Shown here: one piece after another, positions 1,998 through 62,906 of the stretch | Layout of the letters: every line of letters begins with the position of its first letter | Numbering within the stretch: position 1 is the first letter of the stretch | From: Eledone cirrhosa | Lineage: Eukaryota | DNA length: 64,000 nt | Direction: 5' to 3' | Assembly: GCA_964016885.1 (NCBI GenBank) | Contig: OZ024741.1 | Coordinates: 364,932,001 to 364,996,000 of the forward strand | Program-made: the position numbers and the translations under genes | Notes under the pieces: generated by a model | Seen by the model: only the letters and a program-made list of their open reading frames with translations | Databases searched by the model: none | What the model was told of the DNA's origin: nothing

Positions 1998-2469
1998 TGT
2001 CTGTGTGCGTGTGTGTACATATATATGAGGATATACTGTATATAGACGTATATATGTATAAATAATCAAATAATCAAATAAATATATATATATATATATA
2101 TATAGCCGTCGAAACGGCTTGAGCTCAGCTGTCGGGGTCTTACTGGTTCCTATTACCCACTCTACTACCTCAAGTATTGAGTACTTTGGTGCGTTATGGT
2201 CCACCTGGTTCCTTACCACATTTCCTTCGTTATATATATATATATATATATATATAAATATATAAGTATGTATACGTACATACACATATGTATACAGACG
2301 TACACTATTATGTATATACATACGTACATGCACACGTATATATATGTACGTATGGGTTTACTGAACATTTATTATAATACTCGGTTTATTTGTAAACAAA
2401 CAGCCCGAATTAGTAGCCGTACAGTGTTCGGCAACCATCGTTGCCCTTTTGTTCAACACTGACAAAGGA

Positions 2470-2512
2470 ACGATGAACTAGTTTCTAGCTTATTAGCTGT
2501 CATCAGTATCGT
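2470..2512 (-). ncRNA. Minimal type I hammerhead ribozyme, copy 1
   Basis: acgata-CTGATGA-cagctaataagcta-GAAA-ctag-TT-catcgt; one stem I mismatch next to the core. Confidence 0.75.
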
Positions 2513-2897
2513 ATACCTTCCTGTCAGTCGATTGAATGTTTGAAAGTATATACTTTCCTTATGCATATTAACGGCTGAGCAGCCTAATTTGCATATCGAG
2601 TGAGTTAGTTGGCCGGGTGTACTGAAAACGATAAATGGAAAAAATGAAATTTCATTTCTCACTCTTAGTACGGCTGATACTTAAATATAAGTATGTATAC
2701 GTACGTACATATATGTATACAGACGTACACTAGTATGTATATACATACATGCACACATATATATATATGTATGTGTACGTATGGGTTTACCGAACATTAT
2801 TATAATACTCGGTTTGTTTGGAAACAAACATCCCGAATTAGTAGCCGTACAGTGTTCGGCAACCATCGTTGCCCTTTTGTTCAACACTGACTAAGGA

Positions 2898-2940
2898 ACG
2901 ATGAACTAGTTTCTAGCTTATTAGCTGTCATCAGCATCGT
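2898..2940 (-). ncRNA. Minimal type I hammerhead ribozyme, copy 2
   Basis: acgatg-CTGATGA-cAGCTaataAGCTa-GAAA-ctag-TT-catcgt; perfect 6 bp stem I; palindromic stem III AACTAGTT. Confidence 0.85.
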
Positions 2941-3046
2941 AACCTTCCTGTCAGTCGATTGAACGTTTGAAAGTATATACTTTCCTTATGCACATCGTTC
3001 CTTAGTCAGTGTTGAACAAAAGGGCAACGATGGTTGCCGAACACTG

Positions 3047-3428
3047 GCAGCATAGTGATATGGCCCTTTACGTTCTGAGTTCAAATCCCGCCGAAGTTAG
3101 CTTTGCCTTTCATCCTTGCTGGGTCGATAAAATAAAGCACCAGTAATTCACTGGGGTAAGAGCTGGCCTTGTACCAAAAGTAGAAACATTGTTATTATTA
3201 TTATTTGAGGGCGGTGAATTGGCAGTATCGGTAGAGAGTCGGACACCATGCTTCGCCGCACAGAGTTACGGCCCTTTACGCCCTGAGTTCAAATCCCACC
3301 GAAGTTAACTTTGCCTTTCATCCTTAAAGGGTCAATAAAATAATGTACCAGTAATGAACTGGGCTCGATTTTAATTGACTTTTCCTTCCCTCTTCATATT
3401 GCTGGCCTTGTGCCTAAAGTAGAAGCAA
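3047..3428 (+). mobile_element. Two adjacent tRNA-derived SINE copies (core gcctttcatcct...ggtcgataaaataaagtaccag, Meta-domain-like)
   Basis: A/B-box-like tggcagtatcgg and gagttcaaatccc; (TAT)n tail; more than 12 related copies in the window. Confidence 0.85.
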
Positions 3429-3720
3429 TTATTATTATTTTTTCATTTATCTAGCTTTCTGTTCATACGAGTTTTTACCAAGTCACAACCAGTCACCTTA
3501 AGAGACAATAAGGTCCGTCATTTTCAAGAAAAAAACACATACATACATATCTTTTGGTGTTTACGCTTGAGATGTACTTATATTGATAGAATCTTCCTCA
3601 GTATCTGGGCAGTACCCATTAGTACTATTGTATTGCTTCTGTATGTGGCTTTCCTGGGATTTGAGATAAGTAATCATTAGAGCCTTTAGCTGTCATTCCT
3701 AGCCAACACTAGTGTTGTTG

Positions 3721-4429
3721 TATATTATTTAGAAAACGTAAGAGAAACATAAGCAGAAGGACATTTCCCACTCACCGGCTGTCTTCTGTGGATCACTGAT
3801 GTTTCCAACGCAATGAAGACATCTCACCACAGTACTTTGGTAACTATCCGGGGGAAAAAACAAAAAAACAAAACAAAAACAAAACAGAGACGATAACGAC
3901 GAGAACTACAAAAAAAAAGAAGAAAACACAAAGGAGAAAAACACCGACTGAGAAGGGAAAAACACGAAACAGCAGTACATGTAAGTTGCAGTAACCGGAG
4001 AGAGAGAGAGGGTGAGAGAGAGAGAGAGAATATAATGCAGAGACCGAACATAAGTCCTGACTAACAGCACGAGGGAGAGAGAGAAAATCGACGTCTGATC
4101 ATAGCGAGAACAGGAGCAAAAAGGAAGCGACGAAGGAAAACAGAAGTAAGTGGGAGGGGGATTGGTAAGGGAGCAGAGAGAGGGGGAGAAAGGAGTTAGA
4201 TGGTGAGAGAAAAAGAGAATGGTTCTTTGTTTTTTTTCCCGGATAGCTAGCCCTCTTAGTTATCAACGCACTGTGGTGAGATGTAATGTCTTTAATGTGT
4301 CCGAAACATCAATAATCCATAGAAGACAGCTGATGAGTGTGAATTGTCCTGGTGTTTATGTTCGTGTTTCTCTTAGTTTTTCTAAATAATATATATTAGT
4401 TATCACACAGCGCCTTTGTCACTTTTTAA

Positions 4430-4435
<6 letters not shown>
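3721..4435. mobile_element. PLE-like non-autonomous element with diverged ~150 bp inverted arms; partial second copy at 5477-6004
   Basis: 3721-3870 is a diverged reverse complement of 4225-4395; purine-rich spacer; ends in (TA)n. Confidence 0.6.
4271..4337 (+). ncRNA. Candidate pseudoknotted (strand-scrambled) hammerhead with K-turn; further copies at 3771-3832 (-), 5477-5546 (-), 22365-22429 (-)
   Basis: All three core strands present (GATG-TA-ATGTCTT; GAAA-CATC; AAGACAG-CTGATGA) in non-circular order, with covarying helices between copies. Confidence 0.6.
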
Positions 4436-4505
<70 letters not shown>

Positions 4506-5261: not shown

Positions 5262-5302
<41 letters not shown>

Positions 5303-5406
5303 TAAAAGGAATTCCAACTTTGTATGATTAACTCGTTTTATTTACAATCCTTTAAAATTATAATGATATTATAATTAAATAATATGGTAGAATATTAAAT
5401 GTTAAT

Positions 5407-5445
5407 TGAACAAGTACTTTCATGCTTTCGCAATCTTCAGGTTCA
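5407..5445 (-). ncRNA. Minimal type I hammerhead ribozyme
   Basis: tgaac-CTGAAGA-tTGCgaaaGCAt-GAAA-gtac-TT-gttca; palindromic stem III AAGTACTT. Confidence 0.8.
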
Positions 5446-6121
5446 TATTCAGTGGTGACAGTCAAGTTTGCAATTTTCATCGGCTGTTTTCTGTGGATCG
5501 ATCACTGATGTTTCGAACGCAATAAAGACAGTACATCTCACCACAGTACTTTGGTAACTATCCGGGGAAAAAACAAAAAAAAACAAAACAAAAACAAAAC
5601 AGAGACGATAACGACGAGAACTACAAAAAAAAAAGAAAACTCAAAGGAGAAAAACACCGACTGAGAAGGGAAAAACACGAAACAGCAGTACATGTATGTT
5701 GCAGTAACCGGAGAGAGAGAGAGGGTGAGAGAGAATATAATGCAGAGACCGAACATAAGTCCTGACTAACAGCACGAGGGAGAGAGAGAAAATCGACGTC
5801 TGATCATAGCGAGAACAGGAGCAAAAAGGAAGAGACGAAGGAAAACAGAAGTGAGTGGGAGGGGGATTGGTAAGGGAACAGACAGAGGGGGAGAAAGGAG
5901 ATAGATGGTGAGAGAAAAAGAGAATGGTTCTTTGTTTTTTTTTCTAAATAATATTTATTAGTTATCACACGGCCCCTTTGTCACTTTTTAACTCATATAT
6001 ATATATTAATAAAAGGAATTCCAACTTTGTCTGATTTACTCGTTTTATTTACAATCCTTTAAAATTTATAATGGTATTAGAATGAAATAGTATGGTAGAA
6101 TATTAAATGTTAAGTGTTAAT

Positions 6122-6160
6122 TGAACAAGTACTTTCATGCTTTCGCAATCTTCAGGTTCA
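6122..6160 (-). ncRNA. Minimal type I hammerhead ribozyme (identical to 5407-5445)
   Basis: Same 39 nt, unchanged although the flanking repeat has diverged. Confidence 0.8.
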
Positions 6161-6199
6161 TATTTTGTGGTCACAGTCAAATTTGCAATTTTCAACTGC

Positions 6200-31120: not shown

Positions 31121-34100
31121 TTATCTCTTTCTCTTAATTTCGAGTATATTTTTTTGACCGGCCACCTTCCTGGCGGCAAGGTTGTAAAAGAAAAGAAATT
31201 GTCATCCCTTGAATCGCAAGAATGTTTTGCAAATTTTGACGGTGCCAGCTATCGCAGCCATTTGTAGACTATGAATTAGGGAGCTGCGCTTTTTGTCCGC
31301 AAGTTCAGTCATACTTTGGTCCAAGCGGGTTGGTATATAACGCGTAGCTCCAATAATGATGGGTATGAAGTTAAAGGTGTATCTTGGATACTGGATTTGT
31401 AAACTCCTCATCAATGGTCCGTAGATGTCCTCCTTCTCCTGTATTTTTCTGACAACGTTTACATCAAGTGGGAAATCTGATCTCCACAACAGAACACGTT
31501 TTCAATGTGTGGTCCCAAACAACAATATCAGGCCGGTTGTGCTTTAATTTGGTGGCAGTTTATATTTTAAGGTTCCACCAGTATTCCTTAGTGTCATCTG
31601 TCTCAATATATTCTTCCTCGTTTGTTGTTAATTTTGTTTTCCGAAGTGCGTTCCCGATGGTTCTAGCTATCCCATCGTCTCTCATGGGGAAGTAGTAGCG
31701 AGATGACATTCTTTCGCAGCTGGCAACAATGTGGCTTACATCCTCGATCTTTGTTTTATATAGCCTACACTTATTCTCAGCTGCTGGCTCTCCCCATTTG
31801 TGCAGCATATATTTGGTAGGGAGTTCTTGTTCCTGTATTGCATAGAGATATCCCTCAAGGTGTGATGTCATAAACTCGTCGGAACTCCATGCCAGGCTTT
31901 TTGAGTGGTTTATTCCCTCTATGGTCTGTGTTTTACGTCTCAAGTATCCATGCACAACTTTTTCTGTAAATTGGTCAATTTTTTCATCTTGTTTGAACAT
32001 TGAATAGGATCTTCCGATTTCTCTGAGTGAGAGATTTATATCAGGCTTTATTCCATATCTCTCCTCCAGATCAGTCGCTATTCTAATGATTTTTGTTTTC
32101 ATGCTCATAAACCTGGGCAAGATGGTTGCCAACCTTTTTCCTCTGTTGAAGGTGTTGCTTCAGTGTTACTATCCGGGTCTCATATGTTGTTAATATGGAT
32201 TTTAGACCCCGGCCATCTTCCTTGCGTGAGAAGTATAGCCTATCCACATCACCATTTATGTTAAAGTTCCCAGTAACACTGAGAAGTTTGCGAGTTCTAA
32301 CATCCATCTCACTTAGTTCTTGCAATGACCAGTTCAGCAGGCCAAATGTTGGCGTTAGAATTGGCACAGCATAAGTATTGTGGGCAATGTATTTGTTGTA
32401 CGCTGACAATTCTAATGACCATATTTTCTTTACTCTTCTGAGGTATTCAGTTCTGGTTCTCTCCTTATTTATGGGTCCATCATATCTGACATTCTCATCC
32501 TGTCCAAGATATCTGTAGTTGTCACCTGACTGTAGAGGTTGTATTGTCAGGCCGTTCATCACTAGATTTCTAGAGGAGAGCACAGCTCTTCCACGTTTTA
32601 CTGCCAAATATGCACACTTGGACTCACCAAATTTCATTTTGATGTCTGTTGAAAATTGTGTAATGAGGTCCAATTGTTTCTTGATGTCATTGATATTTGG
32701 CCCATACAACTTCAGGTCATCAACAAAGAAAAGATGGGAGATACTTCTGGACCCACGTCTTTGTCCACCTTGTTTCCTGAGTAGGTAAGATAGTGGATTT
32801 AGTGAGAGAACGGAGAGTAGCACTGACAAGCTATCATCCTGAAAGATGCCCTTCTGGTAATGTATCTTATCAGTCTTAACTTGCTCCTTCTCATGTCTAA
32901 GGATCAAACTGGTGTACCAGTTCTTGGTCAGGCGTTCAACAGCAGCTACCAATGGTTGTGGGACTTTGGCTAACTGTAAAGCCTTAATAATCCACCCATG
33001 AGGTACACTATCAAATGCTTTTTGATAGTCCAGCCACACCACAGTCATGTTTCTGCGATTCTTTGTTGTTTTTTCCTGAATCATTTTATTAGTTAGTAGG
33101 TGATCTATGCAACCCCACACCTCCCTATTTCCACCAGCTTGCCCAGGTGTTATGATGTTGTTGGTAGCACAGTGATCCTGTAAGAACAGGTTAAGGCACA
33201 TAGTATATAATTTATACATGATGTTTTGGCAGGCTATTGGGCGGTAATTTTAGCAAGGGTGGTTTGGCTATTTTGGGGAATGAGGAGAGTAGTGGCAGTT
33301 GATAACCATCTCGGCAGTTCTTGTGTGCCTTTAATGGTTTCTGTAAACAGCCGTATGAGATCTTGCCGATAGAAAGTGAAATTCTTCAACCAGTATCCTG
33401 TAATGACGTCTGGGCCTGGTGATTTCCTATTCGACATTTTCTGTAGAGCTGTTTCCAGTATGTCATATTGTTTTTTCTGGACATGTTGGCAGTAGTCCTG
33501 TTCCAGTTCTTTTAGCCAATTAGTTTGTCTGTTGAATCCGTCATCTGTTTCCCATACAGGTCTCCAGTAGCTCTCAACCTGTTCTTTTGAAGGGGTGTCA
33601 TTTACAGGGATTGAGCTTTTGCCACCGAAGCTGCGATAAACTGATTTAGGATCTCTGGCAAACAATGTATTTAGCACTTGTCGTTTATGTGTTGTTGACT
33701 TATATTTTAGTATTTCTGTTGTAGCAGTGAGCTGTTGTTTCAACTGGTGTAATTTGGAGTTCAAAGTTTTAAATTTTGTATCTCCAAATCGTCTCTCTAA
33801 CTTTTCTTTTAGGTCTTCCTGGTGTCGTGTGAAGTTGCTCTCTATGTTGCATTTCATAACGACTGCGATGTATGAGATACTTCGTCTCAGGGACAAAACT
33901 TTTGCTTTTTAAATTTCGCATCCACGCTGGTTCAGGCTTTTTGTTTGTATCTTGATTGCGTGGTTTTAGATGTGTGTTATATGATAGCAATCTGACAGCT
34001 GAAACATATAACAAAATATTAAGCGTTTCAAATGTTGTTTCTACACCTTTAGATAATTGCCAGCTATTTCATTCACCGCTTCCAATTCCAATTTAGTGGG

Positions 34101-35317
34101 TTCTTTACTGATTCTGGTGTTGTATGGTCTGTCACTCACATTAAGGCTGTGTATCTCTTGAAACATATCGTCCCATATCACTTGTAAGGTGTCCACAAGT
34201 TTTTGGTGTTCTGTTTGTACAGTAGAGTCATGAATTTCAGCCTCGTTGTTGATGTGGTGACAATTACTACTAGAGTTAGCTGACCTTTCTCGCTGTTCTT
34301 CAGTGGAAGTGGGATGTATTTCAGCAAAATTGTTGGTGAGCTGTTCACTGTTAGATTTAGCTGGCCATTCTCTTTGTCTGTCAGTGGAGGTGGGGTGGTT
34401 GTCTACAAGGGCTGTATTTGTAGTATCACTCAATTCCGTTAGATGTATCAATTTACATCTAATGATACGTTTTGCCTGTTCATTTTAATGCTATGGAGAA
34501 AAGTCTAATTCTGGGTGTTTGGAGTTCCATAAAGTTTTTAGCCTTTGCATAAAACCGAACTTTTGGGGTTCAGATTGTTTGTATGCTTCATATAATTCTT
34601 TGTTAAGCTCGTAGCTCTACTGTATACAACGGTTGTAGTTGCGATTTGGTCGAAGGAGACTTGTATGTTTTGCCATGATGAGTTCGTCTATTCACTAATA
34701 TTTCGTATTTATTTTTCAAAATAGTCGATGATCTTCTTTAAAAGTTTCGACAAAGTTCTGTCAGAATCAAATTTAAAGTTATTCACAGATTGGGTAATAT
34801 TTCTTTTCAGTTAGTTTTTAATTCTACAACTGTGTTTTAAACGTTGTTCTTGAATCGTTTGAATCGAGAACAAAAAAACAAAACAAAAAAAAAACACCGT
34901 TACTTAGTATATTTCTTTATGAATGTAATATAATATAACAACGCTGTATTTATATGTTAAAGTTTATGTATCATTCATATAAATAGGTGTTCTACAAGTT
35001 ATTCACAGTTCAAACACTTATGTTTTTGTTTCTGAATCGAAAACGTTACATGTATATTTCTTTATAAATGCAATATAACAACGTTGCATTTATATGTTAA
35101 AGTGTATGTATCGTTCATATATCATAAGTGTATGTATCGTTCATATAAATAGGTGTTTTACAACACACTTACAGTTCAAACACTTATGTAGAATTATTGT
35201 ATGTAATCTTACCGCGTAATGTAGCTCAACTTTTTCCAATATATGGTATGTTGCCTTCATGTAAGCCGTAATTACACACGTCCGATTATCGGACACTGAC
35301 CACAACGGTCGCCATTG
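31121..35317 (-). mobile_element. Near-full-length R4/Dong-clade non-LTR retrotransposon (RT + CCHC + PD-(D/E)xK endonuclease) with frameshifts and stops
   Basis: ORF from ~34676 to 31202: N-terminal ELNKELYEAY..RLKTLWNSKHP, WLDYQKAFDSVPH, HLFFVDDLKLY, CRLYK..SHIVASC, HNRPDIVVWD, IPIIIGA; flanked by (TATG)n. Confidence 0.92.
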
Positions 35318-36129: not shown

Positions 36130-36545
36130 TCTTAAAGTCACAAGCGGTTAATCATATATAGGCTTTGTTGGAGTTTTCATCAATCCTATATCGGCTTTGT
36201 TGGAGTTTTCAACAATCCTATGTAGGCTTTGCTGGAGTTTCCAACAAAGCCTATATAGGATTAACCGCTTGTGACTTTAAGACTCGGCTCTACCAACACC
36301 GACATACATTCAGAAACCCAGCCCGGCGACATGCCACTACACTTTCGGGCTACATCTGGGACCGCCAAGATAATAACACCACATACCATCTTACTTGGAG
36401 CTTACTTTCCAGGGCTAACTCCTACACGGGACCACGCCGTCCGTGTAACTTATGTTCGGAGGAAACAATACAAATGCTGTTTACGAAGGACCAACTCCTA
36501 AACAAAAAAGACGAACTTGTAACCGCATGTAAACACCGATAGCGT
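36130..36545 (+). pseudogene. Penelope-like GIY-YIG endonuclease C-terminal fragment with inverted 5' junction
   Basis: YIGLTACDFKTRLYQH..LSGYIW..CNLCSEE..LLNKKDELVTACKH; 36130-36172 is inverted relative to 36240-36282. Confidence 0.85.
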
Positions 36546-36887: not shown

Positions 36888-36952
<65 letters not shown>

Positions 36953-36954
<2 letters not shown>

Positions 36955-37105
36955 CGAAGGAAGTGTAGTAAGGAATTAGGTGGACCATAACGCACCAGAG
37001 TACTCAATACTTAGGGTAGTAGAGTGGGTAATAGGAAAATGTTCAAGGCTATTTCTGGTTCCTTCCAGAAATAGCCGTCGAAACGGCGTGAGCTCTGCCG
37101 TCGGG
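36953..37105. mobile_element. PLE pLTR fragment with half-hammerhead (same family as 2103-2232)
   Basis: Hairpin ggctatttctgg/ccagaaatagcc followed by GAAA-cggc..gccg-TC; the CTGAnGA strand is lost at an inversion junction. Confidence 0.6.
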
Positions 37106-37119
37106 GTGTTGAACATTTT

Positions 37120-37158
<39 letters not shown>

Positions 37159-42849: not shown

Positions 42850-43825
42850 TTGGAAGTAAGAAGGACAGAGATGTGCAAAATAGAAGATTGGAAAGAAAAA
42901 ACACAGTACAAGCAATTAAAGATGGATGAAACGGATAGTAGATGGACAGAAAAATATATGTATGGACAATTCTATAGAGATGTTAAAGATAGGACAAACA
43001 GAGAAAAAAAGTAATCTAAACGTAATCTAAAACCGGCAACAGAAGCCTTAATCTGTGCTGCTCAAGGACAAGCACTAAGAACTAATTACACCAAGCATAG
43101 AGTAGGCTACACAACAGAAAGTGGTAAATGTAGAATCTGTGGCATGAATGGAGTAACTGTATGGCATATTACCAGTCAATGTACACCACTAGCTCAGAAA
43201 GAATGTAATAGACGTCACGACAACATAGCAAGGATTGTCCATTGGGCACTTTGTGGGAAATATACACTTGACAGAGAACAAAAGTGGTACGAACATAACC
43301 CTGAAGGTGTTATCGAAAATGATGCTGCTAAGATCCTGTGGGACTTTGTGATACAGTGTGACTATGAGATTGAGTATAGGAGACCAGATATTGTATTAAT
43401 TGAGAAAGAAAGCAAACAGTGTTGGATCATAGGTATAGCCTGTCCAGCTGATAACAAGGTATGCGATAAAGAAGGAAAAAAACTGATATTACAAGTTAAC
43501 TTGGGAGATTAAGCAGTTGTGGTCACTGAAAAAGGCGGTGGTAATAGCAATAATAGTTGGAGTCTTGAAAAGAGACAGTAAAGATCTTGGAAAGTACATT
43601 AAACAAATTGTGTTGCAATACGGATGGAACACATACGAAAAAAACAAAAAAAAAACAACAACAAAAATCACTCCAAAGAACAAAACAAAACAAACAGACA
43701 ACATTGCTTGGAACAGCTCGAATACTCCGGAGGGTTCTCGAAAAATAAGGGTTGTTACCTCAGTTCACAACCGTTAGAAGCTGAGCGAAGAAACAATAAT
43801 AGTATTAATGATAATAATAATAATT
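42850..43825 (+). pseudogene. 5'-truncated Dong/R4-clade element (CCHC + RLE) ending in (TAA)n
   Basis: TEALICAAQGQALRTN, CRICG..WHITSQC, RRHDNIARIVHW, RRPDIVLIEK. Confidence 0.88.
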
Positions 43826-45062: not shown

Positions 45063-46598
45063 ATTTAGGGCCCTTCTAAATTTGTAGGCTAGTTCGCCTC
45101 TAGGGGTTGTATCGATGAACATTACACTCTGGTATTTATTGCTATCATACCATGAGTTTATTATATTGGCCTTGTTCCTAGTTCATTCAATTCTATTCCA
45201 AAATTTGCTCCTATACAAGGGGCAGGTCCCATTTATGTCATTATTTACCATTTTTTCCCATTTGGTTCTGGCTCCTCTATACACTCTGATTCTATCTCTC
45301 TGATTGTAGCCAGAGAACGGATTTGGTACGGGTGATGAGAAATGTGTTCCGCATGTGCAACCCCGAAGAACTAGAGAGACACATACAACACTTCATCCAC
45401 CGTATGCAGTTCTCTGGCTACAATCAGAGAGATAGAATCAGAGTGTATAGAGGAGCCAGAACGAAATGGGAAAAAATGGTAAATAATGACATAAATGGGA
45501 CCTGCCCCTTGTATAGGAGCAAATTTTGGAATAGAATAGAAAGAACTAGGAACAAGGCCAATAGAATAAACTCATGGTATGATAGCAATAAATACCAGAG
45601 TGTAATGTTCATCGATACAACCCCTAGAGGCGAACTAGCCTACAAATTTAGAAGGGCCCTAAATAAACATAAACTCAATATTAAGATAGTAGAAAGACCA
45701 GGTACCTCCGTAAAAACACTTATTAGCAAGACATACCCGTTCCAAAGACCCTCATGTATAGATAAGAAATGTATAACCTGTAAAATAAGCCCCCATATTA
45801 ACTGTAAAACTAGAAATGTAGTGTATAGCATAAGATGTACTGAAGGACAATGTAGAAGCAAAAATATAGTGTACATAGGTGAGACAGCTCGTAGTATAGG
45901 GGAACGGATAAATGAACATGGGGAGACCTTCAAGATAATAAAGAATCATCTGTACTCTACCAACATGCTAAGGTAGAACACAAGGGTAAATTAGAGAACT
46001 TAGAAATAAAAATAGAATCTACACACAGAAAAGATGCAATGTTTAGACAAATTACAGAGGCAATAAACATAAAAGAATTACAACCAAAATTAAATAGAAA
46101 ATATGAGTGGAACAGCAACATCACAACTTACAATTAAGGACAAAATGAAAACACATACACACATAGAACAAACAACCAACCAATAACATGTAAATAAATA
46201 AACAAATAGATAAATGAACACAAACACACACAGACACCCGGATGTGGCGCATGCGCAAACTGAGCACACAACACACACACAGAAACAAAATGGCGTAGGA
46301 CAGAAGAAAGGAAAGGCACAGAAACAAAGAAAGGAATCCCCAGTCACTGAAGAGGTCACAGAGTGTGTGACGAAAGGACTATGACTATATATAAACAACT
46401 ATCTGGTTGTGGAACCAACCAACCAACCAGATATTTATAAATTTGTAGATTTGTAAATTTATAAATATATAATAAATTGAAGTGAAAGCAACTGGTGCGT
46501 GTGTTTCTTATTGGCAACATGACCCTCCCAAAGTATAACAATATCGGTTTCAACACACGATTTCAGATAAAGAATCTTGCTAAACAAATTCAGAAACG

Positions 46599-61248: not shown

Positions 61249-61290
<42 letters not shown>

Positions 61291-62906
61291 GGTGTCGACG
61301 AAATCGAGGCGGTCGGCACCTTACTGGAGGAGTACGAAAAGTTCACAGGGGCTAAGCTGAACCGGGACAAGTCGATCGGTTTGCAACTCGGCACGTGGAG
61401 GGGCAGACCGATGCCCTCCGATAGCGTCGTCGGACGCTGGACGGAGGGCCCGGTGAAGTTGCTCGGGGTCTGGTTCGGACCGGACCTCCAGGTGGAGAAA
61501 AACTGGGCGGAGGTTACGAACAGGGTGTTTGCACTGACCCAGAAGTGGGCCAGTTGCAAACTATCCCTGAAAGGTCGGGCGGAGGTGGCGAACACCTACA
61601 TAGCGTCCGTCATCTACTACCGCCTGACCGTAGTGCCCTGCCCAAGGGAAACCCTCACCAAGATGGAGCGCGCACTCTTCCAATTCCTTTGGAAGAGGCG
61701 GGCTCCTATGGTGAGGAGATCCATCTGCTGTCAACACCCTTCGAAAGGAGGGCTGGGGATGCCGTGGCTAATGATGCGTAAACACGCATTAAGGCTACGG
61801 CACCTCTACGTATTCCTCACCGGACAACCGGTGTGGGCCTCGTTTGTGAGACGAACCTTTCCCAGACTCGTCTCACTCACCGAGCTGCAATCCTGGGTCA
61901 AGCAAAGACCGAGAAAACTGGGCGCCTGGCACACTGAGTGTGCCCAGGCGCTCACCGCCCTCTGGCAGGCGGATCCGGTTATCAGTGGAGACTCCACCGC
62001 AACATTCTATAGAGGGCTGGTACGCAGCAGGTGCGACGACGCCCTCGGAGAAGCCCTAGACATGGAGGAGGACGAACTGGCCAGCCTGTTCGGTAGGACA
62101 TTCAGCCCGGGACCTATGGACAACTTCCAGAAGTCCCTGGCCTGGCAGTGCTACCGAGGGGCTTTACCCGTTCGAGAAAGGCTCTACAGACACGGGCGCC
62201 CGGGTAGGGACCCCGCCAAAAAGATCTGTCCCAGATGCGTGTGCGACGAGGAAACCGTTGCACACGCATTAGTACACTGCTCGGGCGTAGCCGATCTGTG
62301 GGGCTATGTCGAACAACTGCTGTCAAGGGTGGGACCGATCCGGTTGACCACCGAGTCTATTGTAATGATCAAGCCGCCTCCCCCCTTCAAAGATGAAGCA
62401 GAGGCGGTGTTTCTGTGCGTAATAGCCATGGCGAAAGAGGTTGTATGGTGGACGCGTCTGAAAGGACTGAGGTCGGGCACCTTTCTCTCTGGCCAACAAC
62501 TGGTCCGTTTCTTCCGATATCATTTCGGAAGAAGGATCAGGATGGAGAGAGAGGTGCTGCACCCCAGCCGTTTCTATGAAAGATGGGTGAAAGTGGCGAG
62601 AATGGCCCGTGTGAATGGGCCTTCACTCTACATCAGACTATAGGTGAGGAAGATGAAAGACCAAGGGAGCACCCCTTCTCTGTGCTCCTGAGGAGTAGGG
62701 TTGCACACTTTTTTCGGGGGTGTGTGCGACCCCCCAAGGCGCCTCCTCTCTATTCAGGATTTTGTTAAAAATTTTATTTTTTGTTATATCTTATTTTATT
62801 TTTATATTTTGTTATTGCCTTCTCCTTATTGAGGACGCCTTTTTGTGTAAACTCCCCCCTTTGTACTTGTCCCACTTTTGATGCCCTAGTGGCAAATAAA
62901 AGAAAT
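61291..62906 (+). mobile_element. 5'-truncated Tx1/L1-clade retrotransposon; open ORF2 C-terminus to stop at 62643; inserted in (TATC)n
   Basis: LGVWFG, LSLKGRAEV, GGLGMP, CPRC..ETVAHALVHC; aataaa near the 3' end; GC-rich. Confidence 0.93.

Follow-up and report, generated by a model that had tools for sequence, protein, structure and literature searches.

Fixed ends of a hammerhead repeat family in Eledone cirrhosa suggest Penelope-type insertion, with no excess of breaks at the predicted ribozyme cut site

Does a DNA junction that lies exactly at a predicted ribozyme cut site record the end of a cleaved RNA? The question is raised by a tandem hammerhead repeat in Eledone cirrhosa (AT-rich genome, 3.0 Gb), in which an inverted segment at 2993 starts exactly after the predicted GUU cut. 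The initial annotation had noticed this coincidence, and it is accurate: 2903 is the first base past GUU. We studied the locus within a window of 64,000 nucleotides, meaning the whole stretch of contig OZ024741.1 from 364,932,001 to 364,996,000, and compared it with other copies of the family. Positions below are those of the window, and q1 denotes the base that immediately follows the predicted cut (window 2903, minus strand) in a unit of 428 nt. The locus contains the following features:

2231 to 2256, no strand: (TA)n microsatellite, the likely insertion target, abutted by the 3′ end of the forward arm
2257 to 2992, minus strand: forward arm (locus L001), 736 nt or 1.7 units, from q339 through two cut sites to q219–222 (site A)
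2464 to 2520, minus strand: hammerhead copy 1, predicted cut between 2476 and 2475
2631 to 2682, minus strand: 51-nt "tail" bounded by the fixed 3′ ends of the family at site B (q273, 2631) and site A (q222, 2682)
2892 to 2947, minus strand: hammerhead copy 2, predicted cut between 2904 and 2903, CUGAUGA at 2934
2993 to 3046, plus strand: inverted arm, 54 nt (q1–q54), identical to 2850–2903, its outer end at neither site A nor site B
3047 to 3155, plus strand: flanking dispersed SINE-like repeat (possibly a SINE); where it meets the inverted arm, roughly its first 55 nt are missing

In RNA orientation, the insertion runs from inverted q1–54 across the junction into the forward arm, which starts at q339, passes two cut sites, and reaches q219–222 and then (TA)n. 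The tandem period of 428 proposed earlier holds, over 1.7 units rather than two full ones. The unit copies at 2260–2568 and 2685–2995 are 91.8% identical over 317 columns, with 7 mismatches and 2 gaps in 213 columns once the microsatellite-like part is left out. The inverted arm is the reverse complement of 2850–2903 in 54/54 positions and of 2422–2475 in 53/54. Apart from a microsatellite frame that ends at 2357, the unit lacks any ORF of 120 aa, and GC is 0.375 in 2001–4000; the repeat is thus noncoding and under 50% GC, as in retrozymes, and its short tandem units (428-nt period) each carry a predicted type I hammerhead. Other loci hold arrays of 3–7 units of about 430–530 nt each. The subfamilies that dominate are younger, carry GUA at the cut site, and are built of longer units (about 465–530 nt); the GUU subfamily to which this window belongs looks older and rarer.

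The predicted motif is likely a conserved hammerhead of canonical type I form. On the minus strand, CUGAUGA starts at 2934 and at 2506, 428 nt apart, with a 4-bp helix II and GAAA, and the cut triplet GUU is followed by CAUCGU. The palindromic stem III that had been pointed out is present, as the palindrome AACUAGUU, and would favor dimers. Copy 2 has a helix I of 6 bp plus a distal helix, a helix II of 4 bp with a C·A at its base, and a helix III of 2 bp with the palindromic loop. Copy 1 is probably impaired, to judge from an A·C mismatch at the core-adjacent helix I pair (2507/2475), a place where 94% of 247 instances have G; because of this mismatch by the core, a relaxed scan requiring five pairs detects copy 2 only. 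Consecutive motifs that are both intact occur at other loci (L083 and L088).

The name "minimal" hammerhead, given to these motifs earlier, does not fit, since their helix sizes (helix I 6 bp, helix II 4 bp, helix III 1–2 bp, with a palindromic loop and a conserved core) are those of the canonical metazoan type I hammerhead. The minimal hammerheads of Penelope pLTRs, as described in the available text of PMC4209133, share with the family the type I topology, a palindromic helix III region, and predicted dimer action. They differ in a helix II of 7–8 bp rather than 4, an extra base after A9, a G10.1–C11.1 pair, and the absence of helix III, none of which is found here; the family fits the class that the same paper calls "canonical" in metazoans.

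Two departures from the canonical motif are seen, C·A or U·U at 10.1–11.1 and U at position 17. U17 and the missing G–C pair would slow cleavage. Rfam yielded no hammerhead match at the gathering threshold or at E ≤ 10, and neither single motif adopts a hammerhead fold at minimum energy. The Rfam miRNA matches lay far below gathering and were set aside as microsatellite and hairpin noise. Across 247 gap-free instances from fetched loci, core bases are 94–99% constant. Subfamily changes in these instances fall at N7 (U/C), at position 17 (U/A, never G), in loop II, and in the distal helix; there is also a G·U/A–U wobble in helix I, and the 10.1/11.1 pair switches between C·A and U·U. Helix cells pair in 93.5% of cases (41 of the 247 instances), as against 33–50% with partners slid. 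Covariation is weak, its score being reached in 14/500 shuffles, and in 53/500 for pairs changed on both sides. We regard a conserved hammerhead as likely because of the core constancy, the helix pairing, the canonical helix sizes, and a precedent in the axolotl, where a family described in the available text of PMC7229834 has U·U at the base of helix II and its dimers cleave better.

Breaks in copies of the family are no commoner at the predicted cut site than at neighboring positions. The initial annotation proposed that the junction marks a ribozyme-made RNA 5′ end and suggested mapping breakpoints relative to the cut site; counted genome-wide, they show no excess of ends there, and the proposal is not supported. 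A whole-genome pattern count finds 16,191 places with an exact −6 to q29, i.e., intact through the cut site. Design 1, which demanded two mismatches just upstream with q1–29 intact, gave 94 matches at the cut site, compared with 76 at a control 7 nt upstream and 122 at one 6 nt downstream that has a shorter core. By eye, 30 of the loci matched by design 1 comprised 14 true junctions and 16 point or indel variants. The background stop rate predicts 84–138 matches at the site for this design (0.41% per base, an overestimate because alignments break in the microsatellite part, with 0.25% as the lower guess). Because design 1 misses the window's own junction, we ran a second design, which finds 35 matches at the cut site (window included) vs. 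44 at a control seven bases downstream, where the core is shorter and about 11 of the 44 are one-base deletions by eye. The upper bound on passages that stop at the site is 0.83% in a 3-nt window, i.e., under 1%.

Individual loci give the same picture. The search pattern for this set lay downstream of the cut site, and among the 100 of 777 matches listed it yielded 85 loci with 136 passages through the site; 3/149 arms stop within 3 nt of it, where about 2 are expected. A first homology search had a query that spanned the cut site, which selects against arms ending there, and was left out of the breakpoint test. An early tally by eye (100 of 737 matches listed), with a flat spread over −2 to q13, was superseded by the whole-genome counts. 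The forward arm of the window's own insertion passes through two cut sites. The inverted start at the cut site is likely a coincidence because copies break there no more than at neighboring positions; by simple arithmetic the chance is 1/428 per junction per base, or about 3% with three breakpoints and a 2-nt tolerance, in a family of more than 16,000 copies. Contigs of four runs from one study over 2780–3420 are short repeat fragments, and none of the pieces listed spans the junction, so that they speak neither for it nor against it. Elsewhere in the genome, a perfect palindromic head-to-head junction of the family lies at q4 (G000:C1:125888380–125888429); PMC3846280, in its available part, ascribes such junctions to self-priming.

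Microhomology and chance are enough for the position of the junction. The forward arm ends ATGCA and the inverted arm begins CAT, so that a CAT overlap of 2–3 nt plausibly placed the window junction, which has two extra bases (CA) relative to a clean overlap. The join of q338–341 to q1 occurs at three places genome-wide, once with a clean CAT overlap, once with an extra A, and once with the extra CA of the window. Among 45 inversion junctions, as judged from rough BLAST ends, the overlap is 1–7 nt in 19 and longer in 7; another 2 are blunt, and the other 17 contain additional or unaligned bases.

The ends of the family suggest how it was pasted in. In the 85 loci among the matches listed, 114/149 arms end at site A (about q222) or site B (q273), while 5′ ends are scattered. 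The end classes were given wide windows (210–227 and 260–275), as alignments of other subfamilies break off near q262. Each site ends with UAU, and the tail between them lies within a predicted stem-loop at 2612–2676 (fold of 2612–2700, z = −3.45). TA repeats occur within 14 nt of 55/61 site-A ends and 35/53 site-B ends, again for loci among the matches listed. Of 45 head-to-head pairs, 26 have both ends at the sites, and 24 of these 26 use one site per arm (P = 5e-6); at least one end lies off sites A and B in the remaining 19/45. Two other sets show one site per arm in 13/13 (17 pairs) and 12/13 (25 pairs), for a total of 49/52 inverted insertions with both ends readable. In a further 20 loci, six young insertions whose ends could both be read likewise use one site per arm, one of them read by eye. 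One arm ending at each site suggests coupled priming of both target strands. With two fixed 3′ ends, a tail that is one-sided in inverted insertions, a microsatellite target, and 5′ truncation, the family was likely pasted in by the enzyme of a Penelope-type retrotransposon. The initial assignment to hammerhead tandem repeats of the non-LTR retrozyme kind, linked to Penelope-like elements, is supported.

On balance, we favor reading the locus as one insertion of a high-copy, noncoding hammerhead family of the non-LTR retrozyme kind, in which a Penelope-type reverse transcriptase/endonuclease likely acted on (TA)n, using an RNA whose ribozyme site was either still uncut or sealed again, and the inverted start is likely coincidence plus the CAT overlap. 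The enzyme would nick both strands of the TA tract and prime two cDNAs inside the RNA, one from each of sites A and B. At either site, the UAU could anneal to a few TA bases of the target, the exact junction being ambiguous in TA. Two incomplete cDNAs would then be joined head to head at a few shared bases. In the window copy, the forward arm would be the site-A cDNA and the 54-nt piece a remnant of the site-B cDNA, left by a deletion that also removed the start of the neighboring repeat. The hammerhead may act earlier, as a dimer, with multimeric transcripts cut to monomers that are then circularized, and it would leave no 5′-end mark in DNA.

Because the cDNAs cross the cut site, the RNA template would be an uncut multimer or a sealed circle. 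In favor of a circle, the unit folds compactly (z = −6.7); in young insertions, all units and both arms differ by 0–3 bases in about 300, and 9/22 multiunit loci share variants found in ≤3% of other units. Neutral or contrary to it, young loci are also mutually close (median of 5 differences in 305 nt, 3/55 pairs identical). In older copies, the distance between units of the same insertion is smaller than that to the nearest other locus in just 3/58 tandem and 1/23 inverted pairs, a comparison that is biased by order statistics and by the overlapping loci L092–L094 and does not separate circle from multimer. The window's own two units differ at q12, with both states present in other copies, a less than neat fit to one circle. 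A tentative extension, which we consider possible though not the better bet, has one dimeric Penelope enzyme and one ribozyme-made RNA circle per inverted insertion, the subunits priming both strands 51 nt apart by TA/UAU pairing in the manner of telomerase and rolling through the sealed cut site. If true, it would be direct genomic evidence for mobilization of animal retrozyme circles and would explain Penelope tails on one end only.

Since the forward arm of the window copy ends at site A, a site-B end would be expected for the other, 54-nt arm; that arm instead stops at q54, next to a repeat without about its first 55 nt. We connect this stop with the lost start of the flank because one deletion would explain both, and we infer a site-B origin for an arm that now has no site-B end. 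The main rival to a deletion is fold-back copying of the adjacent unit, which strikes us as rather unlikely: The end of the first cDNA would have folded back over 89 nt, annealed at CA/CAT, and been extended along its own strand for 54 nt before it joined the target, at a position unrelated to cleavage. Such copying accords with the 54/54 identity to the adjacent unit, which includes the rarer A at q12 that is absent from unit 1 and is found with ACGATG in 5 segments of the GUU group. Also in its favor are the two extra bases at the junction, an outer end that falls at the border of a short inverted repeat (q15–21/q48–54), and other short inverted pieces with odd outer ends (L032, L043, L201, and L100). 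However, zero differences in 54 nt have a probability near 0.17 at the unit-to-unit rate of 3.3% (simple arithmetic), a second arm from the same RNA would carry the q12 variant too, and the start of the flanking repeat is lost, as a deletion would cause.

A second rival, the model of the initial annotation, is improbable. It supposes twin priming on a ribozyme-cut linear RNA, with a second primer at q54 copied to the cut 5′ end. In L1, 5′ inversion by twin priming leaves a short inverted 5′ piece with microhomology, as here. L1 twin priming uses a free internal priming point, whereas the arms of this family normally both end at fixed internal RNA sites. The junction exactly at q1 is what the model predicts, a few family arms run exactly q1–q222 or q1–q273 (L095, L106, and others), and a rare event of this type is possible at one locus. 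Yet the missing excess of ends at the cut site, with the upper bound given above, largely refutes it at the family level. Here it would also require that 284 nt were lost where the inversion begins and that two ribozymes farther downstream on that RNA stayed uncut, for a junction whose place the CAT overlap already explains. The in vitro data in the available text of PMC11167929 argue against it as well: Uncut RNA was the main substrate, no reads ended at the cut site, and cleavage was unnecessary. A satellite-like repeat that spread at the DNA level, with a dead or accidental hammerhead look-alike, is very improbable, because although Rfam has no match and the base of helix II is noncanonical, the fixed 3′ and scattered 5′ ends, the TA targets, and the dispersed arms in head-to-head orientation point to reverse transcription, and subfamily changes spare the catalytic core.

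The family itself has no reverse transcriptase plus GIY-YIG ORF between pLTRs. A point against the preferred reading, insertion by a Penelope-type enzyme, is that no autonomous partner with the unit sequence appeared among 30 loci of one Penelope-type family or next to 121 free 5′ ends. An autonomous Penelope-type family is abundant in this genome (54,750 first-look candidates); its ORF is 790 aa long, its 3.5-kb tandems end in (TA)n, and we tentatively label it "Neptune-like" by its motifs. A GIY-YIG-like C-terminal fragment of this family, after a 32-bp tandem, lies at window 36162–36542 (plus strand), and the family was rejected as the partner for want of any sequence in common with the unit. 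Protein matches near L087 and L165 proved to be unrelated neighbors, and recurrent 5′ flanks proved to be other subfamilies or nested repeats. Pfam found no match in the 790-aa ORF or in two endonuclease-like frames of the window.

Other Penelope-type remains were seen as well. The left neighbor of the locus, 2102–2230 (plus strand), corresponds exactly to the 3′ terminus of an autonomous element of Penelope type found at locus L150 (133/134 bases), and ends in the same (TA)n tract from the opposite side; a diverged inverted copy lies near 36890–37120. Within the element itself (L150:6700–6810, minus strand), about 100 nt upstream of its 3′ end, there is a hammerhead-like three-way junction with a U3–A8 core variant, missed by the CUGANGA scan; it is the minimum-energy fold, yet has z = 0.28. 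A second Penelope-type ORF fragment, at 45290–46390 (plus strand), has an end that looks GIY-YIG-like by its motif and is followed by a minimal-type hammerhead motif at 46347.

The window holds further repeats. Two more hammerhead-like motifs with palindromic helix III, at 5440 and 6155 (minus strand), lie 715 nt apart in a direct repeat and possibly represent another retrozyme-type family. The segments 3746–4449 and 5288–6199 belong to a local duplication with a period of about 1.7 kb (92–97% identical), and 228–439 and 696–907 form a 212-nt inverted repeat, 99% complementary and nested in a larger inverted arrangement with (TA)n flanks. Non-LTR retrotransposon fragments occur at 31560–34484 (minus strand), 43015–43512 (plus strand), and 61249–62643 (plus strand), with an RVT_1 match at 32083–33249 and a weak zf-RVT match at 61249–62643.

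Published metazoan non-LTR retrozymes resemble the family closely. As the available parts of PMC7229834 and bioRxiv 10.64898/2026.07.22.740005 describe them, they too are noncoding tandem units of low GC and a few hundred bases (about 150–450 bp, up to ~1 kb in vertebrates). Every unit bears a canonical type I hammerhead whose helix III is short and palindromic, copies run into the thousands, and the predicted fold is compact. Both papers already propose Penelope origin and mobilization, from co-occurrence and pLTR similarity. In their available text we found no mapping of fixed ends, tails, or inverted arms, unlike here; conversely, no partner pLTR turned up among the loci compared here. The supplements of the bioRxiv paper could list related families.

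Penelope-like insertions offer the second comparison. According to the available text of PMC8557442, PMC3846280, and PMC11167929, they share with the family partial tandems, a head-to-head inverted copy, a one-ended tail, two reverse-transcription start sites, (TA)n targets, and microhomology at 5′ junctions. The first two papers describe incomplete tandem copies, a truncated copy in inverted orientation, insertion at microsatellites, and a tail that is often confined to one end, and the in vitro work of the third has a tail spanning two internal start sites, both strands cut and extended, AT-rich targets, and a protein that is a predicted dimer. Differences are the family's lack of a reverse transcriptase–endonuclease ORF, its tail of 51 nt vs. 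30–40, and the UAU at the end of its start sites, which could anneal to the target; priming by the anole element, by contrast, involves no homology. Penelope expansion in coleoids is covered by PMC8967140, whose available text does not contain the word "ribozyme." Our search of mostly open-access literature found nothing on a cephalopod hammerhead repeat, on cut-site breakpoints, or on site use per arm.

Had the proposal held, this locus would have carried the first genomic footprint of hammerhead cleavage in Penelope-type mobilization. The counts remove that claim and bound cut, linear templates under 1%, in agreement with the in vitro data on the anole element. What the locus provides instead is a family with more than 16,000 copies, very young ones among them. 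Its ends link a retrozyme with insertion of the Penelope type, and they put a figure on a rule of one site per arm (49/52). The role of the hammerhead and the route of retrozyme mobilization are stated to be open in the available text of PMC8557442, PMC7229834, and bioRxiv 10.64898/2026.07.22.740005, and this family makes both testable by counting.
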